In this document: positions 6,354-60,827 of the stretch, in pieces
Numbering within the stretch: position 1 is the stretch's first letter
Layout of the letters: each line of letters opens with the position of its first letter
Assembly: GCA_013285655.1 (NCBI GenBank)
Contig: JABDHI010000001.1
Coordinates: 21,124 to 85,123 of the forward strand
Length of the DNA: 64,000 nucleotides
Reading direction: 5' to 3'
From: Bacteroidota bacterium
GTDB taxonomy: Bacteria; Bacteroidota; Bacteroidia; JABEUT01
The notes under the pieces: generated by a model
Told to the model about the DNA's origin: nothing
Database searches by the model: none
Seen by the model: the letters and a program-made list of their open reading frames with translations, nothing else
Position numbers and translations under genes: made by a program

Positions 6354-6388
6354 ATCAATTAAGAATTACGAATTAAAAATTAAAAATT
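6354..6388. repeat. Heptamer tandem repeat (NNNAATT x5)
   Basis: atcaatt aagaatt acgaatt aaaaatt aaaaatt fills the hmgA-hppD spacer; related copies 8640-8672 and 13853-13886 on minus strand. Confidence 0.85.
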
Positions 6389-7549
6389 ATGTCAAAGGAA
6401 GTTAAAAATGTTGAGTACGGATTAGAAAAAATATTTGAAGGCGCGAAAGACTTTTTGCCTTTATTAGGTACTGATTATGTAGAGTTTTATGTAGGCAATG
6501 CAAAGCAATCTGCACACTATTATAAAACAGCATTCGGGTTTCAATCGCTTGCGTATGCAGGCTTAGAAACAGGTTTAAAAGATCGTGTATCGTACGTATT
6601 GAAACAAGATAAGATCAGAATAGTTTTAACTACTGCATTAAAAAGCAGTTCACCAATTGGTGAGCATGTAAAAAAACATGGCGATGGTGTAAAGGTAATT
6701 GCGCTTTGGGTAGAAGATGCACGCAAATCGTTTGAAGAAACTACTAAGCGTGGTGCAAAACCATTTATGGAACCTACTGTTGAAAAAGATGAGTTTGGCG
6801 AAGTGGTACGTTCTGGCATTTACACATATGGCGAAACAGTGCACATGTTTGTAGAGCGTAAAAACTATAAAGGAACATTTTTACCTGGCTTTAAAGAATG
6901 GAAGAGTGACTACAACCCAACTCCGGTTGGTTTGAAATTTATCGACCATATGGTTGGTAATGTGGGCTGGGGCGAAATGAACGCAACTGTAAAGTGGTAT
7001 GAAGAAGTAATGGGCTTTGTAAATTTTTTAAGTTTCGATGATAAGCAAATTACTACTGAATATTCAGCATTAATGAGTAAGGTAATGAGTAACGGTAATG
7101 GACGTATCAAGTTCCCGATTAACGAACCGGCTGAGGGCAAAAAAAAATCACAAATCGAAGAATACATCGATTTTTACGAAAGCCAGGGCGTACAGCATCT
7201 TGCCTTAGCAACCGATGATATTATTAAAACGGTTAATGAATTAAAAGCACGTGGGGTTGAGTTTTTGCCTCCTCCTCCGCAAGCCTACTATGATGAAATA
7301 CCTAAGCGCTTAGGCACTCATAGAGATATGATGAAAGAAGATATTAAAGAACTTCAAAAACTTTCTATCCTGGTAGATGCTGACGAAGAAGGGTATTTAT
7401 TACAAATATTTACCAAGCCGGTTGAAGACCGCCCTACCCTGTTCTATGAAATTATTCAGCGTATGGGTGCTAAAGGATTTGGAGCAGGTAATTTTAAAGC
7501 CTTGTTCGAATCAATAGAAAGAGAGCAAGCTAAGAGAGGTACACTCTAA
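6389..7549 (+). CDS. hppD: 4-hydroxyphenylpyruvate dioxygenase
   Basis: DHMVGN, FPINEP, GVQHLAL, FYEIIQR, GFGAGNFKALFESIE. Confidence 0.97.
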   Translation: MSKEVKNVEYGLEKIFEGAKDFLPLLGTDYVEFYVGNAKQSAHYYKTAFGFQSLAYAGLETGLKDRVSYVLKQDKIRIVLTTALKSSSPIGEHVKKHGDGVKVIALWVEDARKSFEETTKRGAKPFMEPTVEKDEFGEVVRSGIYTYGETVHMFVERKNYKGTFLPGFKEWKSDYNPTPVGLKFIDHMVGNVGWGEMNATVKWYEEVMGFVNFLSFDDKQITTEYSALMSKVMSNGNGRIKFPINEPAEGKKKSQIEEYIDFYESQGVQHLALATDDIIKTVNELKARGVEFLPPPPQAYYDEIPKRLGTHRDMMKEDIKELQKLSILVDADEEGYLLQIFTKPVEDRPTLFYEIIQRMGAKGFGAGNFKALFESIEREQAKRGTL

Positions 7550-7554
7550 AAGCA

Positions 7555-7622
7555 AATATCGAACACTGAATGTTGAATAATGAATTTCGACATTCGGTGT
7601 TCATTATTCGATATTCATTATT
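7555..7622. repeat. Inverted heptamer-repeat element (GAAT/ATTC family)
   Basis: gaacactgaatgt...acattcggtgttc; right arm recurs at 60583-60621. Confidence 0.8.
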
Positions 7623-7630
7623 TGTCTTTA

Positions 7631-8350
7631 CTAGGCTGCATTCTTTTCTACATACTTTAACAAAAACCTTTTGGCAATAGGTAGCAAGGTTTCTTCAAGC
7701 GGAACTAACCAATTACTTTCAATAGCGTAAGTAGCAGGGTTAGGCATTTCCTGTTTTTCTTTAAGTAGTTCCAACTTTATGTATTGGTATGATACGCCCA
7801 TGTCCATCTCCCTGGTCTTTACAAACTGGGTATGTATGCCCCGGTATTTAGCTTCCGGTTCTTCAAACAGGGCAATGTCGTATTCGTAAACGGTGGTGTC
7901 AGCATTCTTGCCATCGCGTATAAAAATGTAGCCTTCCTTAGCATGTAGCGGCACTACCCCAACCGGGAATATGTTCAACTGCGATTCGATAGCCTCATAT
8001 ATTTTCCGCCCCTCGCTCAGGTATTTCTGAAAACGAGGAATAGAAAAATCAACAATGCTTTCCAACTGCTTCATTATCTCAGTATCTTCTATCATGTTTT
8101 GGTAAATAATGCGCATATTTTCCGCATCAATGCCTTCTGCACTTTGCGGAAAGTTCTTGAACATTTCTTCCTTCTTTTCCTTTAGCGATACCAACTGACG
8201 GTAGTGCGTAACCAGTTCTCTTAAAGAAGGGTAAAGCTTTTGCACCTCAAAATCTTTATCTACATCCTGCAAAAAAGCCAGCAAAATGTACTTCTTGTAT
8301 TCAAAGTCAATATACTTCTCGGTAAGCCAGTTGGTGTTCAGTATAGCCAT
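7631..8350 (-). CDS. Conserved hypothetical protein (Bacteroidota type)
   Basis: 239-aa ORF with NWLTE..IDFEYKKYILLA start and ETLLPIAKR end; convergent with hppD. Confidence 0.8.
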   Translation of the reverse strand: MAILNTNWLTEKYIDFEYKKYILLAFLQDVDKDFEVQKLYPSLRELVTHYRQLVSLKEKKEEMFKNFPQSAEGIDAENMRIIYQNMIEDTEIMKQLESIVDFSIPRFQKYLSEGRKIYEAIESQLNIFPVGVVPLHAKEGYIFIRDGKNADTTVYEYDIALFEEPEAKYRGIHTQFVKTREMDMGVSYQYIKLELLKEKQEMPNPATYAIESNWLVPLEETLLPIAKRFLLKYVEKNAA

Positions 8351-8513
8351 ATTTAGTTGCGTTAATAGGTTATTAAACGGTAAAATAAGCCCCTTGTTAC
8401 AAGTTTACCCATTTAAAACCCCTTATTTACATAGTCTTGTACCTATTTTTCGACAATTTATTGTTCAAATGGGCCTATTTTTAATTAAAAAGCACCTATT
8501 CCGTTACTTTTTA

Positions 8514-8605
8514 GAGATTCCTCACTCCGTTCGGAATGACAGGTCTTCTAACCTCTCCAACAACAAAATATGTTATGCCGAGCCGCCTAAGCGGAGAGGC
8601 ATCTC
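8514..8605. repeat. REP-like inverted pair (GAGATTCCTC...GGAATGAC family)
   Basis: gagattcctcactccgttcggaatgaca / tgttatgccgagc...gaggcatctc. Confidence 0.75.
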
Positions 8606-8669
8606 ATTTATCTATCCAAACCAATAAACACCACACTTTTCATCGTAATTTTTAATTCGTAATTTTTAA

Positions 8670-8698
8670 TTGACGGTTTGAGGATTCTTTTATCTTTG
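8670..8698 (+). promoter_or_regulatory. Bacteroidota -33/-7 promoter for ppiD-like gene
   Basis: TTG(8670-72)-N18-TATCTTTG(8691-98). Confidence 0.75.
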
Positions 8699-8718
8699 CA
8701 ACCCTCAATCAAACATAT

Positions 8719-10863
8719 ATGAGCATTTTAGAAACTATCCGTCGCAGACTTAATGTATTTATAGTAGTTATAATAGGCGGCGCCTTGCTTGTTTTCATTT
8801 TAGAAGACGCATTAACCTCCGGTAAATTTTTCTTTGGCGGCGACGAGAATGTTGTTGCAAGTGCAGGTGGCCAAAAGCTGCAATACAAGGACCTGAATAA
8901 CAAGATTGAAGAAGTGGAAGCCATTCAGAAAATGACCAGGCAAACCAATACCCTCGATAACGAAACCACAACCCAAATACAACAATCGGTTTACCAGGAA
9001 ATGGCATCCGACTTAATTGTTGGGCCACAACTTAAAAAATTAGGCTTAAGCATTACCGATGATGAATTGACTGACCTTATGCTTGGCGAACATTTAGCGC
9101 CTGAAGTTATACGCCACTACTTAACTGACCCACGTACCGGCAGGCTTTACGACCAGGTTGTTGACCCACGCACAGGCGGTGTGAACAGAGCTGTATGGGT
9201 GAACTTTGTTAAGAATATGAAGGATGAGCAAGAGTATGACTACAGACTTACTGAAGAAGAAGTTAAGGTAAATACCCTGCAACAAAAATATATAGCGCTT
9301 GTTAAAAGTGGTATGTTCTATACCGATGCTCAGGCTAAGGAAGAAATGACCGAACAGAACAAGTATTACAATATTAGCTACGTATTAAAGAGATATAGCA
9401 CCGTACCTGATAATACCATAACGGTTGCTGACCAGGATATACAGAACTATTACAACGGACACCTGTATGAGTATAACCAGGCAGAAGAAACCCGTAAGAT
9501 AGACTACGTTGGCTTTTTAGCTACCCCTACCGAGAAGGATATGGCTGACCTAGAAAACCAAGCGGATACCATTGCACGTACTATTAAAACATTAAAACCT
9601 TCTGAAGATTCTGCATACATTACTGCTGAATCTGATGATCACTTACTAGACCCTAACTATCACAAGAAAGGCACCATGTCTCCAACCATTGATTCAGTTA
9701 TGGATCATGCGGAAGTTGGATATGTTTATGGTCCTTACCATGAGATGAACAAGATTAAAGTTGCTAAGCTTTTAGATGTAGCTAACCTTTCTGACTCAGT
9801 AAAGGTGAGCCATATACTTATTGCTCCTGCAGATCCTGCAAAAGAAGCAACCTGGGCTGATGCTAAAAAAAGAGCAGACAGTATTAAAGGAATTGTAACA
9901 AGAGAAAACTTTGCTGATATGGCTAAGAAATTCTCTATGGACCCAGGCTCTAAAGACAAGGGTGGAGATGTGGGATGGTTTAAACAAGATGCCCAAATGG
10001 TTCCTGAGTTTGTACATGCCGGTTTCTTTAATAACAAAGGAGATATTGTAGTTGTAAAGAGCCAGTTTGGTTACCATATTATATATGTAGTTGACCAGAG
10101 CGAAAAATTCAAATTTATGCACGTGGGTTATGTTGTTAAAAACATTGCGCCAAGTGTAGAAACACTGAACGGAGTATTCTCACAAGCTAGTTCGTTTGCC
10201 GGTAAAAACAGCACATCTGATGCATTTGAAGCTGCTGCCGACAAAATGAACAAGCGTGTAGCTGATGTTAAAGAAAATGATGCATCAGTTTCGGGCCTTA
10301 CTTCAGCTAAAGATCTTGTACGTTGGACATACACAGCCAAGGTTGGCGACATGTCTTCGGTATTTGATGTAGGTAATTTCCGTTACGTAGTAGCTCATTT
10401 AGTTCAAATAACTCCTAAGGGAACTTCTCCGCTTGATGTTGTTAAAGATCAGGTTAGAGAAAAAGCTATGCAACAAAAGAAAGCCGAAAAACTTATTGCC
10501 GATATGAAAGCTGCTATGCCAGGTGCAACCAATGTTGCAGCATTGGGCCAAAAGCTTAACACACCTGCAGCTACCCAACAACGCCTTTCGTTCAGTATGT
10601 ATAGCATACCGGGCCTAGGTAAAGAAGATGCTTTATTAGGTACTATGACTGCATTGAAACCAAATACACTTTCGCAACCAATACAAGGTGAACTTGGTGT
10701 ATATGTAATACAAGTAGATTCGTCTTACACCAATGGTGCAGGCGACTTTAGAATGGTGCAACAACAACAAATGCAGGCTATGCAAAACAGGGCACAATAC
10801 GATTTGTATGATGCTTTGCAAAAGAAGTCGGGCTATGTTAGCCATTACGGAAGGTTCTACTAG
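8719..10863 (+). CDS. Periplasmic chaperone / parvulin PPIase (PpiD/SurA-like)
   Basis: N-terminal TM anchor, SurA-like N domain, rotamase VKVSHILI...FADMAKKFSMDPGSKDKGGDVGWF. Confidence 0.9.
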   Translation: MSILETIRRRLNVFIVVIIGGALLVFILEDALTSGKFFFGGDENVVASAGGQKLQYKDLNNKIEEVEAIQKMTRQTNTLDNETTTQIQQSVYQEMASDLIVGPQLKKLGLSITDDELTDLMLGEHLAPEVIRHYLTDPRTGRLYDQVVDPRTGGVNRAVWVNFVKNMKDEQEYDYRLTEEEVKVNTLQQKYIALVKSGMFYTDAQAKEEMTEQNKYYNISYVLKRYSTVPDNTITVADQDIQNYYNGHLYEYNQAEETRKIDYVGFLATPTEKDMADLENQADTIARTIKTLKPSEDSAYITAESDDHLLDPNYHKKGTMSPTIDSVMDHAEVGYVYGPYHEMNKIKVAKLLDVANLSDSVKVSHILIAPADPAKEATWADAKKRADSIKGIVTRENFADMAKKFSMDPGSKDKGGDVGWFKQDAQMVPEFVHAGFFNNKGDIVVVKSQFGYHIIYVVDQSEKFKFMHVGYVVKNIAPSVETLNGVFSQASSFAGKNSTSDAFEAAADKMNKRVADVKENDASVSGLTSAKDLVRWTYTAKVGDMSSVFDVGNFRYVVAHLVQITPKGTSPLDVVKDQVREKAMQQKKAEKLIADMKAAMPGATNVAALGQKLNTPAATQQRLSFSMYSIPGLGKEDALLGTMTALKPNTLSQPIQGELGVYVIQVDSSYTNGAGDFRMVQQQQMQAMQNRAQYDLYDALQKKSGYVSHYGRFY

Positions 10864-11036
10864 GAACTTAACTGCTGAATTTTAAATAGGAGTGTTGAAT
10901 GAAAAGACTACACTCCCTTGTTAAAACTGCATAAAAAAGTGTATCTTAGATTTTCGTTTTATTGCCCGAATGAGCAGGATCGTTTTTTCCATATCATTCA
11001 ACATTTAAAATTTCAATATTAAATATTAGTCTTATT

Positions 11037-12969: not shown

Positions 12970-12996
12970 CTATATTTGTTATATATAAATCAGACT

Positions 12997-13548: not shown

Positions 13549-13570
13549 TTTAATCTCTTTCTTTTTTCTT

Positions 13571-13658
13571 TGGGCGTTCCCCTCGTTCCTCGGGTCGGGC
13601 TATACGCTTCAAGTCCTCGCTACGCTCCCGGCTTTCCGCTACTATCCCTAACGCAAAC
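13571..13658 (+). ncRNA. Structured dispersed repeat, Flavo-1-RNA-like (copy 1)
   Basis: 76/88 ungapped identity to reverse complement of 59833-59920; Flavo-1 label from memory of the motif, not from a search. Confidence 0.5.
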
Positions 13659-13891
13659 TACCGTTGCACAAAAGTCTCGGCACGTAAGGTGAAGAGTTTA
13701 GACGACAGGATACGACACATAGATGCAAAGGATTATTCGTAACTTGCTCATATTATAATGAACTCATGCAGGCTTCACCGGTGTGCTAAATCCACGCAAA
13801 TATTATGTTAGTATGGAGATTGCTTCGTTCCTCCCAATAACGAACTACTTTTCGATTCGTAATCCGTAATTTTTAATTCGTAATTGAAGGG

Positions 13892-15034
13892 CTACGCAGT
13901 AAGAACCCCACGCGAGATAACGATCTTCTGTACCTCGGTAGTACCCTCGTAAATCTGGGTGATCTTAGCATCGCGCATTAAACGCTCAACGTGATACTCC
14001 TTTACATAACCGTAACCACCATGTATTTGAACAGCCTCGGTAGTAGTATCCATAGCCACCTTCGATGCGAATACCTTAGCCATTGCTCCGGCTTGGGTAT
14101 AATCAAGGTGTTGGTCTTTTAACCACGCTGCTTTTAAGCAAAGCAAACGAGCTGCATCAATTTGAGTTGCCATATCGGCGAGCTTAAACTGAATTGCCTG
14201 GTGTTGGCTAATAGGCACACCAAATGCTTTTCTTTCCTTTGAGTATGCAAGCGCTAATTCATAAGCGCCCGAAGCAATACCCAAGGCTTGTGATGCAATG
14301 CCGATACGTCCGCCCGAAAGGGTTTTCATAGCGAATTTAAACCCGAATCCATCTTCGCCGATACGGTTTTCTGCAGGCACTTCTACATCAGTAAACATGA
14401 TGGAGTGTGTATCAGAACCACGTATGCCAAGTTTATTTTCTTTTTTACCAACCACAACACCCTTCGAATTCTTTTCAACTATAAAAGCATTGATGCCTTT
14501 ATGTTTCTTATCAGGGTAGCTTTGTGCAATTACCAAATACACCGATGCGCTATTGCCATTGGTGATCCAGTTCTTGGTACCGTTTAAAATATATTTATCT
14601 CCTTTAGGAATAGCAGTTGTGTGTTGCGATGTAGCATCAGAACCTGCTTCAGGTTCTGACAACAAGAATGCTCCAATAATTTCACCTTTAGCAAGCGGCA
14701 CAAGGTATTTACGCTTTTGTTCTTCGGTGCCAAAGTTTTCAAGGCCCCAGCAAACTAATGAATTATTTACCGACATACACACCGATACAGATGCATCTAT
14801 CTTAGAAATTTCTTCCATTGCCAATACATACGATACGGTATCCATACCGCCACCGCCGTATTCGGGACTAACCATCATACCCATAAAACCAAGCTCGCCG
14901 AGTTTCTTTATTTCTTCTTTCGGAAATTTCTGCAGCTCATCGCGTTCAATTACACCAGCCTTAAGGGTTTCATTAGCAAAATCGCGAGCAGCTTTTTGTA
15001 TCATTAAGTGCTCTTCGGTCAGTTGGAAATTCAT
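13892..15034 (-). CDS. Acyl-CoA dehydrogenase (short/branched chain)
   Basis: FLLSEPEAGSD, KNWITNG, GGRIGIA, VQIHGGYGY, IYEGTTE. Confidence 0.95.
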   Translation of the reverse strand: MNFQLTEEHLMIQKAARDFANETLKAGVIERDELQKFPKEEIKKLGELGFMGMMVSPEYGGGGMDTVSYVLAMEEISKIDASVSVCMSVNNSLVCWGLENFGTEEQKRKYLVPLAKGEIIGAFLLSEPEAGSDATSQHTTAIPKGDKYILNGTKNWITNGNSASVYLVIAQSYPDKKHKGINAFIVEKNSKGVVVGKKENKLGIRGSDTHSIMFTDVEVPAENRIGEDGFGFKFAMKTLSGGRIGIASQALGIASGAYELALAYSKERKAFGVPISQHQAIQFKLADMATQIDAARLLCLKAAWLKDQHLDYTQAGAMAKVFASKVAMDTTTEAVQIHGGYGYVKEYHVERLMRDAKITQIYEGTTEVQKIVISRGVLTA

Positions 15035-15092
15035 AGCTATATTGGAATTTATATACCCGCAAATATAGCTTAATTAACAACTAAACAAAGAT

Positions 15093-15138
15093 GCCACAGA
15101 TACACAAATATTAAAATAATAATCTGTGAATCTGTGGC
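15093..15138. repeat. GCCACAGATT-family palindromic element
   Basis: gccacagatacaca...aatctgtgaatctgtggc; right arm identical to 56982-56999. Confidence 0.85.
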
Positions 15139-15162
15139 TATCTTCCCTGAATAAGCCCGCTT

Positions 15163-15318
15163 TTAAACCGGGTCCTTTCCTTGTATAAGCCTTAATAATA
15201 CGGCTATAATGGCTATAACAAGTAATATATGTATAAGTCCGCCGGCATGGTAACCAACGAAACCTATAAGCCAAAGTATTACCAGAATAACCGCTATTAA
15301 ATACAGTAAATTACTCAT
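15163..15318 (-). CDS. lmo0937-family small membrane protein (51 aa), absent from ORF track
   Basis: Manual translation MSNLLYLIAVILVILWLIGFVGYHAGGLIHILLVIAIIAVLLRLIQGKDPV*; the WxxGF...GLIHILLV pattern is the family signature as I recall it. Confidence 0.85.
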   Translation of the reverse strand: MSNLLYLIAVILVILWLIGFVGYHAGGLIHILLVIAIIAVLLRLIQGKDPV

Positions 15319-15515
15319 ATTGGTTTTTGTTTTTGGTTTGTAATTATAAAGGTAAAGCCCTATTACTCAACCACACACATACTTTCGGCGAACTTGGTTT
15401 TTACATGGGTAAAAACATACTATGGCAAGTTAGCTAAAGCGCGGGAATGGTTCAGCTCTCGCCTTTTTTCAGTATCTTTGCTAGGATACATAATTTATAC
15501 ATTCATTTACATACT

Positions 15516-28976: not shown

Positions 28977-29035
28977 GTTTTTGTATTAGTTACTGCAATA
29001 ATAGTCAGAAAATGCCATATATAGGCACGTTTTCT

Positions 29036-29522
29036 TGTCATGCTCAGGCTCTCGAAGTATCTATTCCGATTAAAAAGACAATAGAATGCAGATGACACAG
29101 ATTGAATAAGATTTTCACTGATTTCATTGCATTAGGGCGCTATTTGTCCCCCGCTGGAGGGGGCAGGGGGGAGGATTATTCCCATCATTGCGAATCCGCG
29201 GGTTGGCGGATATGGTAATCTCAGTATTTAATTTCACCACAGATCACACAAATTTTCACAGATTCAAAACCGCCGTAATGGGGTTACAAACACGTTGTTT
29301 TGTCACCCATCAACCTATTGACTTTCAATATTAAATGCGGTGAATTTTTTTGTGGTTTTGTAACCCTACTTTGACGATTGACCCAAGTCCTAAAGGGGCT
29401 TTAAAACGTGTCGCAAAATGTCGGTTTCTGTCGTAGTAGAGTTTTTATTTTGTTGTTGTCCTATTCAACACATTCCAAACCTTTATTCTCCATTCATAGT
29501 TCATCGTTCATAGCTTATCGTT
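29036..29522. repeat. Mosaic cluster of several REP-like families upstream of gmd
   Basis: Sub-elements at 29036-62, 29080-124, 29146-77, 29185-222, 29237-64, 29281-366, 29382-402, 29409-33, 29492-522. Confidence 0.85.
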
Positions 29523-29527
29523 ACTTA

Positions 29528-29535
29528 CAAAAGTA
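29528..29535 (-). promoter_or_regulatory. -7 promoter element, probable promoter of the gmd operon
   Basis: TACTTTTG on minus strand; only consensus match I found between gmd and the divergent gene. Confidence 0.6.
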
Positions 29536-29622
29536 GCGCCTTTTAAGCCTTTATTCAAGAAGCAAACAAACGGGTTTTCAACAGGGCAACTGCTTATTTT
29601 CTGAATGTTCTATATTTGGTTT

Positions 29623-31584: not shown

Positions 31585-31678
31585 TCATGGCTAAAGCCAT
31601 TAATTAGCCAACACTACCTACCCCCCAGACTTAAGTCTGGGGTAATACACGCAGATATAGTATGGGCTTTGGCCATGA
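31585..31678. repeat. GGCTAAAGCC-family palindromic element
   Basis: tcatggctaaagcc...ggctttggccatga with central ccccagacttaagtctgggg palindrome. Confidence 0.8.
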
Positions 31679-31699: not shown

Positions 31700-31837
31700 G
31701 GATTTCTCACTCCACTTTGTTTCGTTCGAAATGACAACAAGTGTAACTTCAGAAGGGGAGGGGTGGCGCGGCAAAGCCGCGCCACCCCTCCTCGATAACT
31801 ACACACTCTCTGTCATCTCGAACGAAGTGAGAGATCC
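31700..31837. repeat. REP pair (GTCATYTCGAACGAAGTGAG family) around a perfect 16-bp GC hairpin
   Basis: Arms 31700-31736 and 31811-31837; hairpin ggaggggtggcgcggc-aaa-gccgcgccacccctcc 31757-31791. Confidence 0.85.
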
Positions 31838-31898
31838 CTCAAAGTGATGATAAAATAATATTACTGTTCTCAGCGCCTTTGTGCCTTAGCGGTTAAAG

Positions 31899-34147: not shown

Positions 34148-34157
34148 AAGTTACCTT

Positions 34158-34642
34158 AATAGAACACAGATGACACGGATTAGACGGATTTTCACTGATT
34201 TATAGATTTGATTTTCTTTTTATCATTTGTAAATAACTTTCTTTTAAACACGGCTGTTTTTCCAAAGTTCAAAAGAATACCAACCTCGGCCTCGGTTGCC
34301 TTTAAATAATTTATCAATTGAAATTCGTGTTCCTCACACAAGCCCTCTGCGGCTTTTAATTCAATAACGACATTCCCCTCGACAAATAAGTCAGCAAAGT
34401 ACTCGCCCACTTCTCTTCCTTCATAATACACCTTAATGTGCTTTTGTTTTTCAACACGCATACCCATCTTTAGCAATTCAAGATACATTGCGTTCTCATA
34501 TACTTTCTCTAAAAAACCGAATCCCAATTCATTGTATACCTTATAGAATGCCTGTATAACCTTATCCGTAATATCTTTATGCAGTAGTTCCATTGTATTT
34601 ATCCTTGTTAATCCGTTAAATCAGTGTCATCCGTGTTCTATT
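34158..34642. mobile_element. GxxExxY cassette bounded by imperfect inverted repeats (candidate element)
   Basis: Left end aatagaacacagatgacac (34158-34176) vs reverse complement of right end 34624-34642: 18/19 identical; arms built of ~9-nt units. Confidence 0.6.
34192..34593 (-). CDS. GxxExxY protein (small PD-(D/E)XK nuclease)
   Basis: LGFGFLEKVYE (GxxExxY), ADL..IELK (D..ExK), QLINY (QxxxY), GILLNFG. Confidence 0.95.
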   Translation of the reverse strand: MELLHKDITDKVIQAFYKVYNELGFGFLEKVYENAMYLELLKMGMRVEKQKHIKVYYEGREVGEYFADLFVEGNVVIELKAAEGLCEEHEFQLINYLKATEAEVGILLNFGKTAVFKRKLFTNDKKKIKSINQ

Positions 34643-34647
34643 ACGCA

Positions 34648-36509: not shown

Positions 36510-36534
36510 ACCAAAGCAAATATAATATATATGT

Positions 36535-36632
36535 AACGATGAACGGTAAACGATAAACTATGAATTTAAAACCACACTATTCCACTAACACACTGCCTTC
36601 TATTCATCGTTTATAGTTCATAGCTTATAGTT
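36535..36632. repeat. Inverted heptamer-repeat element (AACGATG/AACTATG family) between radC and leuS
   Basis: aacgatg aacggta aacgata aactatg ... catcgtt tatagtt catagct tatagtt; related to 29492-29522. Confidence 0.8.
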
Positions 36633-36685
36633 AGCGCCTTCATAGTTTTTCCTAAATTCGCAAGCCTTACTTACTACAATAAAAT

Positions 36686-39460: not shown

Positions 39461-39493
39461 ATTACCGACACGAATTTCACGAATTATTATAAA

Positions 39494-39665
39494 GAGCCTG
39501 AAGGGCTCCAATATTAATAGCCATGGGTGAAGCCCGTGGTAAATAGCACAACCAATTTTAAAGCCCTATCAGGGCGATATATTCAACCCTTACAGGGTTG
39601 TAATTTTGTTTATCATAAACCACGGGTTTCACCCGTGGCTACAAATATTTAACCCCGACGGGGTT
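39494..39665. repeat. REPIN-like nested palindromic element
   Basis: agccatgggtgaagcccgtggt / accacgggtttcacccgtggct (2 mismatches) flanked by CCCTNNNAGGG-type hairpins. Confidence 0.85.
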
Positions 39666-39680
39666 TGCATTTATTTTCAC

Positions 39681-39815
39681 TTGCCGTCTGCTTTAGCTGA
39701 CGGGAAAAGCACATCAACAAAATAAATGGCTTTAGCCTAAAACAACGTCGCCTTTAGGGCTAAAGCCCAAAATCTGTTTCTACTTTTAAAGCCCGTCAGC
39801 TAAAGCAGACGGCAA
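39681..39815. repeat. MITE/REPIN-like element with perfect 24-bp terminal inverted repeats
   Basis: ttgccgtctgctttagctgacggg (39681-704) / cccgtcagctaaagcagacggcaa (39792-815); inner ggctttagcc/ggctaaagcc. Confidence 0.9.
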
Positions 39816-39903
39816 TACAAACAGCCATCCCCACCAACAATCCCATGTTGATATTTAACATATTTTATGACTAATTGTACCTGTTTTCAGTAGGCAAATA
39901 AGG

Positions 39904-39911
39904 TATCTTTG
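39904..39911 (+). promoter_or_regulatory. -7 promoter element for prc
   Basis: TATCTTTG 7 nt before ATG. Confidence 0.7.
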
Positions 39912-39918
39912 CTTTACT

Positions 39919-48573: not shown

Positions 48574-48598
48574 TTTAAGAATGTGTTAAATTTATTCC

Positions 48599-48719
48599 CG
48601 ACACTAATAATTACACGAATTATCACTAATCTATTTTTATTCTGAGACCCTTCTATTAAAGTTCGTTTTGTCATTTTATTTAGTCTGCCTATCTAATTTT
48701 AATTCGTGAAATTCGTGTC
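48599..48719. repeat. GACACGAATT-family inverted pair between exbB and exbD
   Basis: Right arm 48701-48719 is the exact reverse complement of 39467-39485. Confidence 0.8.
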
Positions 48720-48737
48720 TAAAAGCGTACTGTCAAC

Positions 48738-50064: not shown

Positions 50065-50072
50065 CCAAGCAT

Positions 50073-50153
50073 ATAAAGCGTAAAGTTTATAAAGTTATAA
50101 AGCAGATTCAAAGGGCTTTATAACTTTTTTGCTTTATGAGCTTTTCACTTTAT
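50073..50153. repeat. TAAAGTT-family inverted periodic repeat
   Basis: taaagcg taaagttt ataaagtt ataaag...ctttataacttt; related copy 60706-60798. Confidence 0.75.
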
Positions 50154-51214
50154 AAATTCCAGATAGTTCCCCCTTTATTATTTCTATCAGCCCCGGTTAC
50201 ACTGGCCAGGCAGTTATCTTTTCCTTCCCGGCGCAATACTCCTAAAAAAGCAAATACCAGGGCTTCTTTAAAATTCACTATTTCACCAGACGGAACGATC
50301 ACCTTGTGTTTCGGTAGAAATGTATTGATCTTCTTTACTAAATGCGCATTAAATGCTCCCCCACCCGTAACCAACACCCTGCCTGCTGACTGACCACCGA
50401 CCACTTGCTTAATCTGCATTGCAATATGTTCGGTAACGGTAGCTAGTTTATCGCCAGTGCTTATTTTAGAAGAATATATTATTGGCATAAACTCCTTCTC
50501 TACCCATTCGCGGCCCAATGATTTTGGGGGCTTGGCTTTATAGTAGCCAAGCGCGTTTAGTTTTTTCAGTAAATCATTATCTACTTTTCCTTTAGCAGCC
50601 AATAGGCCATCTTTATCGTATGGCTTACCCAATTTGCCTGCCAAATAATTCAATACAATATTTACCGGGCATATATCAAAGGCTATTCTTTTTCCCTTGG
50701 TATCAAATGAAATATTAGCAAAGCCACCCAGGTTGATACAATACTCATAATCGCCAAACAATAACTTATCACCAATCGGGACCAATGGTGCACCTTGCCC
50801 ATTCAAAGCCACATCAAGGCTTCTGAAATCATTTATAACATTATAGTTACTTGCTGCTACAATAGCAGGACCACTACCTAGTTGAAAGGTAAATTTCTTA
50901 TTCGGTTGATGGAAAACAGTATGCCCGTGCGATGCAACAAAATCAACCTTCTTTATTTTGTTTGCTTTAGTAAACGCTGCTACTTGCTGGCCCAGATATG
51001 TACCATAATCATGGTGCAATTGCAACAAAAATTCGCCCGATAATTGGTGTGCCTTTTGCAATTTCTTTAACCAGGCAGATGAATACGTAACAGTTTCAGC
51101 CGATTTAATAGAAAAGATCCACTTGTTGTTTTTATTGCTGAATGTGCAGTAGGCGATATCAAGTCCATCGAGCGATGTACCGGACATTAACCCTATTACA
51201 GAATAATTTGTCAA
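50150..51214 (-). CDS. anmK: Anhydro-N-acetylmuramic acid kinase
   Basis: GLMSGTSLDG, SHGHTVFH, GQGAPLVP, NLGGFAN, GGGAFN, KEA. Confidence 0.96.
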   Translation of the reverse strand: MTNYSVIGLMSGTSLDGLDIAYCTFSNKNNKWIFSIKSAETVTYSSAWLKKLQKAHQLSGEFLLQLHHDYGTYLGQQVAAFTKANKIKKVDFVASHGHTVFHQPNKKFTFQLGSGPAIVAASNYNVINDFRSLDVALNGQGAPLVPIGDKLLFGDYEYCINLGGFANISFDTKGKRIAFDICPVNIVLNYLAGKLGKPYDKDGLLAAKGKVDNDLLKKLNALGYYKAKPPKSLGREWVEKEFMPIIYSSKISTGDKLATVTEHIAMQIKQVVGGQSAGRVLVTGGGAFNAHLVKKINTFLPKHKVIVPSGEIVNFKEALVFAFLGVLRREGKDNCLASVTGADRNNKGGTIWNL

Positions 51215-51217
51215 GAT

Positions 51218-53302: not shown

Positions 53303-53319
53303 TAAGTGGTTGATTATTC

Positions 53320-54975: not shown

Positions 54976-55050
54976 GAAACAAATATAGGAAAGAGGCAAC
55001 TATCTACTTTAATAGTGTCAATAACTTTCCTTTTATGTTAAAAAAGAGGG

Positions 55051-55470
55051 TTAGTGAGAGCACTTCATCACTGTAACACAATCACCGGGATGGTGATACT
55101 CGCAGAAATTTTCGCGCTTGTCTTTTAAAGAAGCAGGATACTCTTTGGTTTCTTTAAAACCTAACTTTTTAAAAAAATTTGGAATAACGGTTACGAGGTA
55201 AACGTCGGTATTAATAGTTGACAAAATATCCTTCACAATGGCCTCGCCTAGTTTCTTGCCTCTGTATTCTTCCACTACTCCAATGCTACATAGCTCTGTG
55301 CCATCCTTGCGCTGCTTTAACCTGCCGAATGCAGCAAGTTTATCATCGTATAGCAATACTTTAAATTGTTCTTTCGTTGCTTCACTGCTATCAAGCACAA
55401 ACTTCTTCAGGTAGCTTCTCACGTCCTCGAACTCTGCTTCATTAGGTTGGCGAACAACTATATTGATCAT
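55051..55470 (-). CDS. GNAT acetyltransferase (ArgA-like)
   Basis: ELCSIGVVEEYRGKKLG acetyl-CoA motif, FFKKLGF. Confidence 0.85.
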   Translation of the reverse strand: MINIVVRQPNEAEFEDVRSYLKKFVLDSSEATKEQFKVLLYDDKLAAFGRLKQRKDGTELCSIGVVEEYRGKKLGEAIVKDILSTINTDVYLVTVIPNFFKKLGFKETKEYPASLKDKRENFCEYHHPGDCVTVMKCSH

Positions 55471-56342: not shown

Positions 56343-56359
56343 AGGTGTCAAAACAGGGA

Positions 56360-56376
56360 TATATTTGTCAAAAATA
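56360..56376. promoter_or_regulatory. Overlapping divergent -7 elements for rlmH (+) and nadC (-)
   Basis: TATATTTG (56360-67, +) and TATTTTTG (56369-76, -). Confidence 0.65.
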
Positions 56377-56385
56377 TAGCATTTA

Positions 56386-56853
56386 ATGAAAGTAACGCTA
56401 ATAGCCATCGGCGACCACGAAGACAAATACCTGGCAGAAGGTTTCGACCTGTATGCCAAACGCCTGCAACACTATATAGCGTTCGATATGCAGACCATAC
56501 CGACCTTAAAGAAAAAAGGCCAAAGCAAAGAAGCCATTATGCAAGCCGAAAGCAAAGAGATATTGAAAAAACTTGCTCCGGGTGACTTGTTGATATTATT
56601 GGATGAAAAAGGCAAAGAATATTCATCAGTGGAACTGGCTAACCAAATGCAGAAGTATTTTAACATGCCGGGTAAACGCATGTTCTTTTTAATTGGTGGC
56701 GCTTTTGGCTTTGCACCCGAAATTTATGCAAGGGCCAACCAAAAAATATCTATGTCGAAGTTGACCTTTAACCACCAAATGGCGAGGTTGTTCTTTTTAG
56801 AGCAGTTTTACAGGGCTATGACTATATTAAAGGGAGAACCTTATCACCACTAA
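56386..56853 (+). CDS. rlmH: 23S rRNA pseudouridine-1915 N3-methyltransferase
   Basis: LLDEKGK, FLIGGAFGF, EQFYRA...GEPYHH. Confidence 0.96.
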   Translation: MKVTLIAIGDHEDKYLAEGFDLYAKRLQHYIAFDMQTIPTLKKKGQSKEAIMQAESKEILKKLAPGDLLILLDEKGKEYSSVELANQMQKYFNMPGKRMFFLIGGAFGFAPEIYARANQKISMSKLTFNHQMARLFFLEQFYRAMTILKGEPYHH

Positions 56854-56865
56854 TTAAGTGAAGAG

Positions 56866-57076
56866 TAGAACACAGATAAAACAATAAGTACAATGCCACA
56901 GATTCACAGATTAGTATTGTCTTTGATATGTTCAGTCAATTTTCACAGATTAGTATTAACACACATAGCGTAGCTATTTATAATCTGTGAATCTGTGGCA
57001 ATCTGTTTAAAATAAAATGGGAATTAAAAATAAAATCAGCGTACATCAGCCTAATCCGTGTCATCCGTGTTCTATT
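56866..57076. repeat. Gene-less element with GxxExxY-type ends and a nested 20-bp inverted repeat
   Basis: tagaacacagat at 56866; 57058-57076 identical to 34624-34642; nested IR 56894-56913 / 56981-57000. Confidence 0.85.
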
Positions 57077-57079
57077 GGT

Positions 57080-58153
57080 ATGTGTATTCTATTCGCGACT
57101 CTATTTTTAAACCTCTCAGCATTTGCTCAAAGCCCGCACAAGAGCAACGAATGGCTTAAGGGTTTACCTGATTCTATTTCAATTGGAGACATTAACCTGC
57201 CGGGATCACATGATGCTGTAGCCATCAACAAACATCATAACACGCCTTACTCTTGCCATAGCACTACTATTCCAGAACAGTTAGAAGCCGGTATTAGGTT
57301 ACTTGACATACGGATAAAAGTGAAAGGCCATAATCCTAATTACAGCTTTGCTACCTGCCACGGAAAATTTTTTGGTGGCTCATTACACTTTAACGAATAT
57401 CAGTCACTGAAATCGGTTTTAGATGAGTGCAGTGCTTTTTTAAAGAATAACCCGAGTGAGTTTATTATAATGATGTTGAAGATAGATGACTGGAATGGGA
57501 AAGATAAAGAAGGAATGTATGAGGCATTAGATTCTCTTTTATTTTCCGCATCTACTAACTATCCTATTTATAACACAGGCGATGCCGACCTTCCCTCACT
57601 TGGTAGCTTGCGTGGTAAAATATACTTGGTTAGCCGGATAGATGATACCCGCGAATTTGGTATACCTGTTGAATTCCCAAATAACACGGCCGACCTCATG
57701 CCACCTATCGAAACGCACCTAATTCACCCACAAGAAGGTGAACAGTCAGCCGTTTTCAGAAAGATAAGAGCTTACCCTATTTACATACAAGACCAGTATA
57801 AAAAACTGGGCCACCATGAAGCGCAGGCAAAACTTGCTTTGGTAGAACAAACCATACCCGTTAAAAAGAAAGGCGATGGAGAAGTAGTTTTAAATTACAC
57901 TACTGCAAGGCGTGGCTTTATGCTTTTATATAAAGTATATATACAAGATAGTGTGCTCAACTATTTTGGATCACGTGACATTTCTGCCAGGCCCATAAAC
58001 TTTGGCTGGACCATGTTGGATTACGAAAACTGGACCTACCCAACAGACAAGTATAGCGACCTTAATCTTATTAAGCTCATCATTTCATCCAACTTCCAAT
58101 ACGCTGACTATCCTGAAAAGTTTAAAGTATTAAAGGGTGAGCATAAGCAATAA
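57080..58153 (+). CDS. Secreted phosphatidylinositol-specific phospholipase C (PI-PLC X domain)
   Basis: LPGSHDA and TCHG catalytic His pair, QLEAGIRLLDIR, YIQDQY; start 57080 (ORF track 57017 includes translated repeat). Confidence 0.85.
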   Translation: MCILFATLFLNLSAFAQSPHKSNEWLKGLPDSISIGDINLPGSHDAVAINKHHNTPYSCHSTTIPEQLEAGIRLLDIRIKVKGHNPNYSFATCHGKFFGGSLHFNEYQSLKSVLDECSAFLKNNPSEFIIMMLKIDDWNGKDKEGMYEALDSLLFSASTNYPIYNTGDADLPSLGSLRGKIYLVSRIDDTREFGIPVEFPNNTADLMPPIETHLIHPQEGEQSAVFRKIRAYPIYIQDQYKKLGHHEAQAKLALVEQTIPVKKKGDGEVVLNYTTARRGFMLLYKVYIQDSVLNYFGSRDISARPINFGWTMLDYENWTYPTDKYSDLNLIKLIISSNFQYADYPEKFKVLKGEHKQ

Positions 58154-58483
58154 TTAGAATATCGACTTCTGTTGGTATTTTAACCTGCAACTATCTTTAG
58201 GGCATCTGCCCGTACCACTATCCTGAGATTCGTATGAACACTTAGGGCGGGCATACACCATCTCATCTTGATGAGGCATATACTGCTTCTCCAAATTACA
58301 GCTCCGGGTATCCTTCTTGGTCTTGTCAACCTTTGCAGGTTTAGTGTGCTTGCTGGCAGTTGTAGTTTTTACAGTTGTACTGGCTGGTTTTGTTTTAACT
58401 GTGTTTGTTGCATTAGTCTTAGTTTGGCAAAAAGCCAAAATACTGAGACCAGTTAGAAGGATAAATGTGAGTGTTGTTTTCAT
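58154..58483 (-). CDS. Hypothetical exported Thr/Lys-rich protein with Cys-rich C-terminus
   Basis: Signal peptide MKTTLTFILL..., PKC...RCPKDSC. Confidence 0.65.
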   Translation of the reverse strand: MKTTLTFILLTGLSILAFCQTKTNATNTVKTKPASTTVKTTTASKHTKPAKVDKTKKDTRSCNLEKQYMPHQDEMVYARPKCSYESQDSGTGRCPKDSCRLKYQQKSIF

Positions 58484-58554
58484 GGCAGTGATTTTGATAC
58501 AAATTTCACTCACGCCCATGAAGTTTTTATGAAGATGCAACTCCTCATTTCCCC

Positions 58555-59538
58555 CTAATGGGGGGACGAAGGGGGGCTTAATAACCCCATATCCTTAGCA
58601 ATCCAATAAGTACTAAAGAAACCTTTGTCGATTGAGAACATACCTGTGCGCCCACCACCGGTTATGGTAGTATCACTCGGGGCAACCATTAAGGCATGAC
58701 CAAGATTAGCTACTTCATAAAATATTATTTGTTCTTTACCTGCTTTGTTGCAATATGCTTTGCGGGTAATATCGGTTTTGTTATCGAATTGGTTTACGAT
58801 GTGTGTTGGGGCACTATCGGCTGCCAGTAAGGGCGCCCATTGTTTAATAAGCAAGTATGCATTCTTTTCGTTCACCACTTTATCCTCAGTACCTTGCATA
58901 ATAATCATACGCGGGTAATTGCCTTTATAAGTAGGGTTTTGTGTTACCACATAGCCTGTCAGTTCCTGCGGGCTTAAATCCTTAGGGTTCTCCATTGCCG
59001 ACATAGCCTGAAACGGGTTTTTGCCCGGCATAAAAGGCCCGCCTGCCAATATTGCACCCATATTAAAAAGGCTTGGGTAATCGGCCATTAGGGCTACACT
59101 TAATGCTGCCCCTGCCGATAATCCGTAAACAAATATGCGGGTAGTATCTATATCAAGACTATCCTTGGCAAAGTCTATCATCTCCCATACCGATGCCACT
59201 TCGCCTTTATCTTTAGTAGCATCTTCATCCTGAAACCAGTTAAAACAACCCGAAGGGTTATTCATGGTGCGTTGTTGGGGGTATAAAACATAAAAGCCAT
59301 AGGTATCTGCCAGGTCATTCCAACCCGATTCTTGTGCTATTACTTTGGCATTTTGTGTGCAGCCATGTAGTGCTACCACCAATGGGAGCCCTTTTTTTTG
59401 CTTAGCCAATGGTGGCTCGTGCAAAAACATTTTAAGGTTACCGGGGTTATTCCCAAAACTCTTTATCTCCAGCAAATCACTCTGCCCCTGTGCACTAAAT
59501 CCCGCTATAGCCATAATTAATAGGAATAGGTTCCTCAT
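58555..59538 (-). CDS. Secreted PHB depolymerase / LpqC family esterase
   Basis: NPGNLKM, HGCTQ oxyanion, GLSAG nucleophile elbow, GTEDKVV, LGH. Confidence 0.92.
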   Translation of the reverse strand: MRNLFLLIMAIAGFSAQGQSDLLEIKSFGNNPGNLKMFLHEPPLAKQKKGLPLVVALHGCTQNAKVIAQESGWNDLADTYGFYVLYPQQRTMNNPSGCFNWFQDEDATKDKGEVASVWEMIDFAKDSLDIDTTRIFVYGLSAGAALSVALMADYPSLFNMGAILAGGPFMPGKNPFQAMSAMENPKDLSPQELTGYVVTQNPTYKGNYPRMIIMQGTEDKVVNEKNAYLLIKQWAPLLAADSAPTHIVNQFDNKTDITRKAYCNKAGKEQIIFYEVANLGHALMVAPSDTTITGGGRTGMFSIDKGFFSTYWIAKDMGLLSPPSSPH

Positions 59539-59711
59539 GAACCAAAATTAGGATTTTAAACCGCTTAAACATAAACAAATTGGGGTGTGTGATTTGGCAC
59601 AATCCTTTGCATCTATGTGTCAAGTCCTATAATCGTCACTTTTCACCTCACGTGCCGTTACTATTATGCAAAGGTAGTTTGCGTTAGTTATAGAGCTTAT
59701 AGTTCACATTT

Positions 59712-59821
59712 ACCCAAACCCCTAAAGGGGCTAAAATACAAGATAGGTTCTAAAGCCCCTTTAGGGGTTTGGGGTCCACGAGAACAATCTCCCCCTGCCC
59801 CCTCCAGCGGGGGATATAGTA
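59712..59821. repeat. G/C-run REP cluster (CCCCTAAAGGGG and CCCCCTCCAGCGGGGG families)
   Basis: IR 59712-59732 / 59754-59775; 26-bp block 59796-59821 repeated exactly at 60553-60578. Confidence 0.85.
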
Positions 59822-59832
59822 AGCAACAAGTT

Positions 59833-59920
59833 GTTTGCGTTAGGGATAGTAGCGAAAAGCCCACAGCGCAGCGAGGACTTGTAGCGGACACCCCGATCCG
59901 AGGCACGAGGGTAACGCCCA
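59833..59920 (-). ncRNA. Structured dispersed repeat, Flavo-1-RNA-like (copy 2)
   Basis: See copy 1. Confidence 0.5.
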
Positions 59921-59945
59921 AATAATTTTTGTCTAAAGGATTTTT

Positions 59946-60449
59946 TTAAGGAGTAACTACAGCAGGCGTAATAATGCGGTTACTGGCAACGCCGGCGCGG
60001 TTGGTAATCCAAACAACCAATTTTTCGTTCACATTATTTACAAAATACCAACCGCCACTACTAAGTGCTATTTGTATCTGTCCACTTAATGCTTTGTAAT
60101 TGCCTGCTGGGGTAATGTCAGGAATATTATAAGGTATTATGGTAGTATCTCCGGTGCCGGGATTATTTATAACTCCCGGTTCAGTATAGGTAAAATAATT
60201 GCCTGAAGACACATCCTGTTGCTGTACCTCAATAAAAAAATCGTAAGGCGGGTTAACATCACTCGATGGGTAACCAATATCGCCATTACCGTCAGTAAAA
60301 TTTATTTTAAGTGTTGCAGAGCCATCACTATTTACTACCATACTCTGGTATGTAATAACGGGGTAAGGCGGATAATTTGGCTTTTTTACACAGCCAAATA
60401 AGCCCAAAAGGCCAACTGACAATATACCTATTATATATAGACGCTTCAT
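59946..60449 (-). CDS. Hypothetical lipoprotein
   Basis: Lipobox LFGC; FTDGNGDIG motif; start 60449 supported by minus-strand TATATTTG at 60456-60463. Confidence 0.8.
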   Translation of the reverse strand: MKRLYIIGILSVGLLGLFGCVKKPNYPPYPVITYQSMVVNSDGSATLKINFTDGNGDIGYPSSDVNPPYDFFIEVQQQDVSSGNYFTYTEPGVINNPGTGDTTIIPYNIPDITPAGNYKALSGQIQIALSSGGWYFVNNVNEKLVVWITNRAGVASNRIITPAVVTP

Positions 60450-60473
60450 TCTACTCAAATATACGAAAAATAT

Positions 60474-60621
60474 TCCTTCCCTCTCCTTGCATAAGGAGAG
60501 GGCTTGGGGTGAGGTGGCCCGCAGTTGACGCAAACGGGAACAATCCTCCTCTTGCCCCCTCCAGCGGGGGATATAGTAGTTATTTCGACATTCGGCATTC
60601 AATATTCGTTATTCATCATTC
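60474..60621. repeat. REP cluster upstream of lipoprotein gene and dnaK
   Basis: ccctctccttgcataaggagaggg hairpin plus ggggtgagg; 26-bp direct repeat copy; ATTC heptamers. Confidence 0.8.
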
Positions 60622-60630
60622 CCTCCAGTC

Positions 60631-60691
60631 TGCCACCCACCTGTCATACATCTGCCATATTTGCATTATGGGGTACTGGCACGGCATTTGA
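60631..60691 (+). promoter_or_regulatory. Candidate dnaK control region: phased TGYCA repeats plus sigma54-like TGGCACG-N4-TTGA
   Basis: TGCCA 60631, TGTCA 60642, TGCCA 60653; TGGCACGGCATTTGA 60677-60691. Confidence 0.45.
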
Positions 60692-60827
60692 TATATAAAC
60701 CAGTAGAAAGTGATAAAGTTTGTAAAGTTCATAAAGTTGAAAGCAAAAAGTCAAATGGACTTTAAGAACTTTAAAAACTTGAGAAACTTTACGAACTTAA
60801 AATGACAAACTTTAAAAACTAATAATT

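Follow-up and report, generated by a model that had tools for sequence, protein, structure and literature searches.

The 64-kb stretch of DNA analysed here (C1:21124–85123, hereafter the window) comes from the metagenome-assembled genome (MAG) of an uncultured soil Bacteroidia. The assembly comprises 2.69 Mb in 121 contigs, with 39% G+C and an estimated completeness of 69%, and its nearest public relatives are uncultured Bacteroidia or Bacteroidota MAGs. The window carries one small gene of the GxxExxY family enclosed by inverted repeat arms, and its intergenic spacers hold many other short palindromic and periodic repeats. Such repeats are usually left unannotated or lumped in one vague class. 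Nearly every family in the window could be assigned to a specific small-gene partner, and the repeats are probably for the most part gene-less palindromes and solo arms of small single-gene cassettes. As judged from their sequences, these cassettes are of at least five kinds, each with its own arm type: four-helix-bundle (4HB), GxxExxY, DUF559, GIY-YIG, and Y1.

Genes were called with a self-trained hexamer score, which gave 2,352 genes and a spacer DNA share of 9.3%. Repeat families were built from an all-against-all BLAST comparison of the spacers, from which greedy seeds were taken. A hidden Markov model was prepared for each seed and run against the whole genome with nhmmer, and overlapping seeds were merged. 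Of the resulting 34 superfamilies (SF), one of tRNA and one of ordinary terminator hairpins (SF0) were set aside. The remainder amounts to approximately 800 copies, with an intergenic share of 80–100% in every family. For comparison, we used 18 genomes retrieved by an order-level search, all of which belong to one genus. An earlier reading of the window from sequence alone (the sequence-only reading) had described at least ten recurring families that pile up in a handful of spacers. Within the window, at least 11 superfamilies are recurrent, and copies of at least 15 window families are found elsewhere in the genome. Each of the eight spacers that had been singled out contains at least two distinct families, but the repeats are not confined to them, as 14 of the 47 window spacers of at least 10 nt carry copies. 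The further repeat-bearing spacers include 6354–6388, 7550–7630, 15035–15446, 34148–34191, 34594–34647, and 48574–48737, and repeat matches are also present in 50065–50149.

The GxxExxY cassette and the other window repeats of its arm type are as follows.

34156..34211, minus strand: downstream (3′) arm of the GxxExxY cassette, SF8
34192..34593, minus strand: GxxExxY gene, 133 aa, PD-(D/E)XK fold
34589..34644, minus strand: upstream (5′) arm of the GxxExxY cassette, SF8
15115..15143, plus strand: solo CACAGATT-array arm, SF13; in two relatives (L100 and L101), GxxExxY genes lie between CACAGAT arms
29079..29113, minus strand: solo SF8 arm, which opens the richest pile of the window
39465..39489, plus strand: solo CACGAATT-array arm, SF12, 4 nt past a stop codon
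48597..48722, unstranded: gene-less SF12 palindrome directly after a stop codon
56885..57009, unstranded: gene-less SF13 palindrome with 47-nt arms
57033..57076, plus strand: solo SF8 arm inside the nominal 5′ end of the open reading frame (ORF) 57017–58153

The nominal start of ORF 57017–58153 precedes the solo SF8 arm, and its true start codon is probably further downstream.

The protein encoded at 34192–34593 matches TIGR04256 with 133.4 bits (cut-off 35) and keeps the invariant residues D68, E78, and K80 (D...E.K). Modest TM-scores (0.41–0.54) place its predicted structure (pLDDT 86) nearest to the folds of Cas4 SSO0001, the archaeal Holliday-junction resolvase Hjc, and lambda exonuclease, and no solved structure related to the protein by sequence was found. 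It is the only partner protein within the window, as the sequence-only reading had stated; the window contains no 4HB, small GIY-YIG, DUF559, or Y1 gene. The genome has two GxxExxY genes (34192–34593 and C55:241–663), both of which lie between SF8 arms, and 22 of the 30 GxxExxY genes in the 18 genus genomes lie between inverted arms scoring at least 17. The arms consist of three or four C-R-C-N-R-A-K units spaced 8–11 nt, in the variants CGCAAAG, CACAGAT, CACAGAG, CACTAAG, CACGGAG, and CGCGGAT. Arm types agree with the tree of the GxxExxY proteins: the labels change 13 times along it, compared with 20.4 in shuffles, and none of 200 shuffles gave a number as low. Arms of the CGCAAAG type were found at at least six different genomic sites. 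One orthologous site (L113, L116, and L124) is occupied, depending on the genome within the genus, by cassettes of two clades with different arm types (CACAGAG and CGCAAAG). A set of 79 relatives of one GxxExxY clade covers Flavobacteriales, Cytophagales, Chitinophagales, Bacteroidales, Ignavibacteria, Chlorobiota, Lentisphaerae, and an anammox planctomycete. In 54% of them, clear inverted repeats flank the gene, and TTAACCGCAGAG...CGCAGAG arrays form the arms once more. We classify SF8, SF12, and SF13 of the window as GxxExxY-type arms, most of them gene-less.

Comparison with the relatives indicates that these elements are insertions. The window cassette is a 500-nt insertion. Fifteen genus genomes have its two neighbouring genes side by side, and in 13 of them the stop-to-ATG distance at this junction is −1 to +6 nt. 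In the closest relative, this junction carries a decayed SF8 terminal arm beside the ATG and a CACAAAA-type palindrome. The spacer 48574–48737 holds the SF12 palindrome in the window, a different periodic palindrome in one relative, and just 26–27 nt in two.

The heptad arms and the SF10 arrays of the window are as follows.

6355..6388, plus strand: solo SF2 heptad arm (AATTACG/AATTAAA units), 4HB-type, which occupies the entire 35-nt stop-to-ATG gap; 76 genome matches
7553..7624, unstranded: gene-less palindrome with SF7 heptad arms (TTCGATA units), 4HB-type, in a convergent spacer
8643..8673, minus strand: solo SF2 heptad arm
13850..13887, minus strand: SF2 heptad arm abutting the stop codon of gene 13892–15034
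29489–29523 and 36599–36633: two-copy heptad array (TTCATAG/TTCATCG units)
50079..50156, unstranded: SF10 palindrome (9-nt AAAGTTTAT units) at a convergent junction
60580..60620, plus strand: SF7 heptad arm
60700..60797, plus strand: two SF10 9-mer arrays upstream of gene 60828–62747, conserved in the relative G021

Gene-bearing forms of both heptad superfamilies are present elsewhere in the genome: SF2 arms enclose a 4HB (TIGR02436) gene at C3:73511–73870, and SF7 arms enclose another at C2:10926–11357. In the genus, 22 of 23 4HB genes lie between inverted arms of four or five seven-base units (AATTACG, AATTAGG, AATTAGT, GCTAAGA, GATAAGA, ATTTGAA, or GATTAGC). A five-chain PDB entry, 2RLD, matches the 4HB protein. 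By the same kind of assignment, SF2 and SF7 in the window are 4HB-type arms, which are likewise mostly gene-less. The periodic families occur mostly as inverted pairs 5–60 nt apart, that is, as palindromes with periodic arms, and few of the pairs enclose a small gene. The TTCATAG/TTCATCG array looks like a further 4HB-type arm family, although it is too rare here to classify. The divergent spacer 36510–36685, in which one of its two copies lies, has no copy of a defined family and otherwise only four weak BLAST matches. In three relatives, the orthologue of this spacer carries the AB element (described below), SF8, or SF1, and its length ranges from 234 to 1,582 nt.

The remaining repeats of the window are mainly hairpins and the two-box AB element.

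8516..8543, minus strand: GTC-tagged hairpin, SF6, of the type found beside small GIY-YIG genes
13566..13734, minus strand: uninterrupted AB element, with a Flavo-1-like B box (13566–13661) and an A box (13662–13734)
13815..13845, minus strand: GTC-tagged hairpin, SF11, of the CGTCATTGCGAGGAACGAAGCAATC type
29143..29438, unstranded: pile of an SF21 hairpin, SF22, an SF24+SF31 composite, an SF1 hairpin, and SF30/33; the spacer 28977–29604 counts as five units
31622..31645, unstranded: GC hairpin, SF19 (CCCCAGACTTAAGTCTGGGG)
31700..31839, unstranded: two inverted GTC-tagged SF6 hairpins around a GC palindrome
39490–39560 (plus strand) and 39600–39680 (minus strand): gene-less, REPIN-like inverted pair of two-hairpin modules, which aligns with the arms of the Y1 transposase gene on C15
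39677..39817, unstranded: SF29 inverted pair with 24-nt perfect arms, 87 nt apart
59591..59925, plus strand: AB element split in its linker, with the A box at 59591–59693 and the B box at 59830–59925
59694..59829, unstranded: insert nested in the AB linker, consisting of an SF1 inverted pair (59709–59775, DUF559-type arms) and an SF21 hairpin (59786–59820)
60477..60575, unstranded: SF18 hairpin with a C-rich tail (DUF559-type) and an SF21 hairpin
62759..62798, minus strand: ordinary intrinsic-terminator-like hairpin, SF0, excluded from the mobile families

The small DUF559 gene on C10 is bracketed by an inverted C-rich tail and CCCCTCTCT/AGAGAGGGG hairpin (SF3), and the arms of another small DUF559 gene (L262) are SF1 itself. 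SF1, SF3, SF18, and SF21 were therefore assigned as DUF559-type arms, a type that combines a C-rich tail with a CCCC/GGGG hairpin. Of the 23 small DUF559 genes in the genus, a strict test for inverted repeats accepts nine, and approximately 15 have the tail plus hairpin on both sides by eye. The GTC-tagged hairpins of SF6, SF9, and SF11 share a common design, in which GTC is followed by a covarying 5-bp stem with a conserved loop. SF6 hairpins are located on both sides of one of the three small GIY-YIG genes of the genome, that on C28. Around 80 GIY-YIG relatives from many phyla, GTC hairpins occur at 2.43 per kb of flanking sequence, compared with 0.28 per kb in control flanks and 0.35 per kb in shuffles; they are present at 70 of the 80 genes and on both sides in 48. 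The C28 gene (L288 232–546; C28:17781–18095) has no in-frame ATG, GTG, or TTG upstream of its conserved YIYILTN motif, and it may be a pseudogene or have an unusual start codon.

Each of the five Y1_Tnp genes of the genome lies between long inverted arms that consist of two or three small hairpins (inverted-repeat scores of 22–48), and the gene-less doublet at 39490–39680, a pair of such modules, shows compensatory stem changes. Y1 transposases were considered as mobilisers of the abundant hairpins but rejected, because the Y1 arms are low-copy (1–5 genome matches), unlike SF1, SF3, SF6, SF9, and SF11. The abundant GTC- or CGTC-tagged hairpins (SF6, SF9, and SF11) accompany the GIY-YIG genes, not the Y1 genes. 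For the AB element, which is approximately 170 nt long and has approximately 30 genome copies, no protein partner was found. The general class of a small protein plus a cognate flanking repeat, which the sequence-only reading had suggested, holds in the relatives for the 4HB, GxxExxY, DUF559, GIY-YIG, and Y1 genes.

The gene-bearing cassettes have a strong orientation bias. Forty-seven of 52 GxxExxY and 4HB cassettes are co-oriented with both neighbours and 50 with the upstream gene, whereas random insertion and orientation would give an estimated one third. The 4HB cassettes contribute 20 of 23, located between protein-coding genes. The cassettes of both types usually lie 25–100 nt from each neighbouring gene. 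In this sense orientation between co-directional genes, they would be transcribed from the host operon. For the sense RNA of the window GxxExxY cassette, the two arms are predicted to pair in a long closing stem (z = −7.1), which joins both flanks, and the arms may be processed as RNA. Integron cassettes were considered because of the sense orientation and the imperfect palindromes. They were rejected, since each gene here has an arm on either side and the cassettes occur as scattered single units instead of arrays.

Every repeat class hugs the stop-codon side of its spacer. Among the periodic arms, 46% lie at most 15 nt from a stop codon and 16% at most 15 nt from a start, and the repeat incidence is 3.0 per kb in convergent spacers, 1.75 in tandem spacers, and 1.43 in divergent spacers. 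Such siting might reflect selection for a shared host function at the RNA or DNA level, in which the repeats serve as terminators, RNase III processing sites, mRNA stabilisers, or insulators between operon genes. The predicted closing stem of the cassette RNA is consistent with this explanation, as is the SF10 palindrome at the convergent junction 50065–50149, which is retained in three of the four genomes compared, and enterobacterial repetitive extragenic palindromic (REP) elements act in such roles (PMC3733652). However, the asymmetric (non-palindromic) repeats show no strand bias relative to transcription, which argues against a shared sense-strand RNA role; the Flavo-1-like box of the AB element, for example, is sense in 14 copies and antisense in 10. 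Orthologous spacers in relatives often have no repeat or a different family, the tightly coupled junction at 34148 is element-free in 13 of 15 relatives, and ordinary terminators form a family of their own (SF0). Selection for a host function thus seems quite improbable as the cause of the pattern, and the common RNA-level function entertained by the sequence-only reading is disfavoured.

Later elements have repeatedly entered earlier ones. Intact AB copies have a linker of 10–13 nt, and all three interrupted copies are broken within this linker by different families: the SF1 pair and SF21 in the window, a solo SF2 arm in the orthologue of the closest relative, and two SF2 arms in a copy on C6. 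Direct duplications of 14–20 nt flank the inserts in the window (59674–59693/59830–59849, GTwGTTTGCGTTAG) and in the C6 copy (L240 100–230, CACGTGCCGTTAC). These may have arisen as target duplications of unusual length or through recombination between the boxes. Elsewhere, an SF13 arm sits in the loop of an SF8 palindrome. Neighbours of different families abut (within 3 nt) in 25% of cases, compared with 6% under random placement in the same spacers. Some combinations are recurrent composites: SF1+SF9 and SF6+B box (Flavo-1-like) recur with a fixed order and orientation, and SF24+SF31 is also recurrent.

Nesting of this kind could result from active, structure-directed targeting. The nucleases of the elements (Hjc-like PD-(D/E)XK, Vsr-like DUF559, GIY-YIG, and HUH Y1) would then recognise hairpins or cruciforms, and copies would be inserted at palindromes of any family. 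The three nested insertions in the same AB linker and the fourfold excess of abutting neighbours are in line with such a mechanism, and the nearest folds of the GxxExxY model (Cas4, Hjc, and lambda exonuclease) also point in this direction. Hairpin single-stranded DNA is a known substrate of Ssn-type GIY-YIG and Y1 enzymes (PMC11893778; PMC3733652). However, the junction into which the window cassette was inserted measured −1 to +6 nt and had no hairpin, insertions into the AB linker are offset from one another by as much as approximately 25 nt, and the TM-scores of the fold search are low. Moreover, the same pattern is expected if only insertions into dispensable DNA survive. We consider it rather unlikely that targeting is the main cause, and tolerance, rather than active targeting, would dominate the formation of the pile-ups. 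A shared targeting rule had been proposed by the sequence-only reading. The stop-codon side, the higher density at convergent junctions, and the nesting into earlier repeats agree with it, but no enrichment was observed at divergent junctions.

The families co-cluster in the genome as a whole. The repeats occupy 266 of 1,669 spacers, compared with approximately 340 expected, and 47 spacers contain at least three units, compared with 15.6 under a length-weighted null (z ~9.5). When shuffling was performed within contigs only, the expectation rose to 24.6 (z 6.4), and additional folding of the recurrent composites gave 37 spacers against 19.2 (z 5.5). With four broad classes only, 78 co-occurring pairs were counted against 56 (z 3.6), and each tested pair among the four main classes was enriched, by 1.3- to 4.3-fold. 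Part of this signal comes from composite elements, so that the families are not all independent. The genome-wide co-clustering is nevertheless real, at approximately 1.4- to 3-fold depending on how conservatively units are counted, and it is partly regional.

The explanation that we favour, and hold to be probable, is that gene-less palindromes and solo arms of the small cassettes gather in tolerated, stop-proximal DNA, where they become nested and, in part, composite. All classes are found, and are probably tolerated, almost only at the stop-codon side of spacers and at convergent junctions. A first element would open a tight junction, and its loop, linker, and ends would become harmless landing places in which later elements nest or which they abut. 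Certain combinations would then spread as composite units. The pile-ups would thus follow from stop-codon-proximal siting, insertion of the elements into one another, and travel as composites. This landing-pad picture is a simple and checkable account of how mosaic repeat clusters form.

Several observations weigh against this explanation. In the window alone, a length-weighted permutation did not reject randomness, with 14 occupied spacers against 16.2 expected (p = 0.18) and three spacers with at least three families against 2.4 expected (p = 0.47), so the co-clustering claim rests on the whole genome. Placement after length correction is thus compatible with chance within the window but nonrandom genome-wide (47 against 15.6). 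Length weighting is itself imperfect, because the length of a spacer is partly built from the repeats. Some spacers will be mis-set, given a 69%-complete MAG and our own ORF calls. The incidence also varies between contigs in a manner that lacks an explanation, from zero in 3.6–5.3 kb of spacer DNA each on C5, C17, and C23 to 3.8 per kb on C6, C22, and C26; genomic islands, differences in expression, and binning are possible causes. No target-site duplication was seen at 34148–34647 or 48597–48722 in comparison with the relatives, and the cassettes showed no conserved target sequence. Across species of the genus, many cassettes occupy orthologous positions, which indicates that movement is rare and that part of the correlation between arm and protein is co-inheritance. 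SF10, with 34 copies that are mostly inverted pairs, has no gene partner in this genome, and we know of no mobilising activity for the 4HB, GxxExxY, or DUF559 proteins.

On the strength of the window-only test, the co-clustering might even be regarded as an artefact, arising because a long spacer offers room for more elements of any kind, one composite enters the count as several families, and neither the gene calls nor the binning is perfect. Several of the nominal families are indeed parts of composites, and the enrichment drops to 1.4-fold with four broad classes and a within-contig null. Nevertheless, a genome-wide z of 5.5–6.7 persists after composite folding and within-contig shuffling, the pairs of main classes remain enriched, and nesting and re-use of sites are visible directly in the sequence. 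An artefact is therefore very improbable.

A broader proposal is offered more tentatively than the landing-pad explanation and is, in our judgement, possible but far from likely. The repeats would represent a general, largely undescribed class of minimal one-gene cassettes in Bacteroidota and other phyla, whose cargo proteins recognise the arms that bracket their own genes and act in trans on gene-less pairs in a REPIN-RAYT-like manner. The periodic arms would serve as multi-site platforms for oligomers, such as a pentameric 4HB protein on four or five heptads. Palindromes extruded as cruciforms might be a shared substrate, which would explain why unrelated families nest in each other. The encoded proteins may thus act on their own arms. 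If this is correct, it would provide testable functions for small uncharacterised proteins of three very large families, show how the intervening sequences of rRNA are connected with elements at other genomic locations, and possibly reveal new sequence- or structure-specific nucleic-acid-binding modules. The RAYT-REP and Ssn-SRM partnerships have already been published. For those of 4HB with heptads, GxxExxY with C-R-C-N-R-A-K arrays, and small DUF559 with C-tail hairpins, no description was found in the searchable literature.

Some junctions of the window also differ among relatives by longer inserts. The spacer 39461–39918 is 60 nt long in one relative and 1.0–2.4 kb in three others. Its orthologue in the relative G021 (L087 7563–9992) has an extra 2.4 kb with ORFs of 285 and 308 aa, and the spacer resembles a hot spot not only for repeats but also for insertions of gene size. 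In the closest relative (L089), inserts of 872 and 799 nt are present at the short junctions 54976–55050 and 58520–58554.

Among known systems, the Ssn GIY-YIG single-strand nucleases with their NTS/SRM hairpin repeats (Chenal et al. 2025, PMC11893778) correspond to the GTC-tagged hairpins. In both cases, oriented hairpins with a conserved 5′ GTC tag stand on either side of a small single-domain GIY-YIG gene, and tens of copies are dispersed. The published SRM pattern, HGTCWYN(0-2)YYVSBRHN(0-5)WNVSBRGN(0-2)RNCYNB, has two matches in this genome, compared with 4–10 in shuffled genomes, and none of them falls on SF6, SF9, or SF11. The hairpins are thus not filed as SRM members, although the association of gene and repeat is of the same type. 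The proteins of the present clade are putative nucleases by comparison, and the C28 copy has no standard start codon.

The REP/REPIN elements of RAYT (Y1 HUH) transposases and the clusters known as bacterial interspersed mosaic elements (BIMEs) (Di Nocera et al. 2013, PMC3733652; Bertels and Rainey, PMC3337134) offer a wider parallel. As in those systems, short extragenic palindromes, including inverted doublets, far outnumber the single-copy gene that they bracket. As in BIMEs, several motifs share spacers as mosaic clusters (SF1+SF9, SF6+B box, and SF24+SF31), some in a fixed order. The five Y1 genes bracketed by inverted hairpin arms and the gene-less doublet at 39490–39680 are the closest counterparts. 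In contrast to REP/REPIN elements, most families here are paired with 4HB, GxxExxY, DUF559, or GIY-YIG proteins, which are not known as transposases. Periodic AT-rich arrays, rather than GC hairpins, make up many of the arms, the Y1 arms are low-copy, and no GTAG tag was seen.

The gene-less palindromes also resemble MITEs (miniature transposable elements with inverted repeats) in their size (80–140 bp), terminal inverted repeats, insertion polymorphism, and matching gene-bearing form. Unlike those of MITEs, however, the gene-bearing forms encode only 4HB, GxxExxY, or DUF559 proteins and no transposase, and the arms are internally periodic. Target-site duplications, a further mark of MITEs, were not seen at 34148–34647 or 48597–48722, and duplications of 14–20 nt flank the AB-linker inserts. 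The AB element is related in part to Flavo-1 RNA (RF01705). Its B box aligns to the full model (positions 1–76) with the stems, but at 33.7 bits (E = 0.0025), below the gathering score of 42. It is one module of a longer dispersed repeat without strand bias.

Intervening sequences of the 23S rRNA that carry an S23p/four-helix-bundle gene are known in Leptospira and Coxiella. The cassettes described here differ from them in lying between protein-coding genes instead of in a 23S rRNA helix. They also differ in having periodic arms whose unit varies with the protein clade, in the predominance of gene-less copies, and in a layout that is common to unrelated proteins. Nevertheless, they share the TIGR02436 protein family, whose gene is enclosed by stem-capable inverted repeats (22 of 23 in the genus) and thus placed in the loop of a long inverted repeat, as well as the sense orientation within a host transcript and the patchy distribution.

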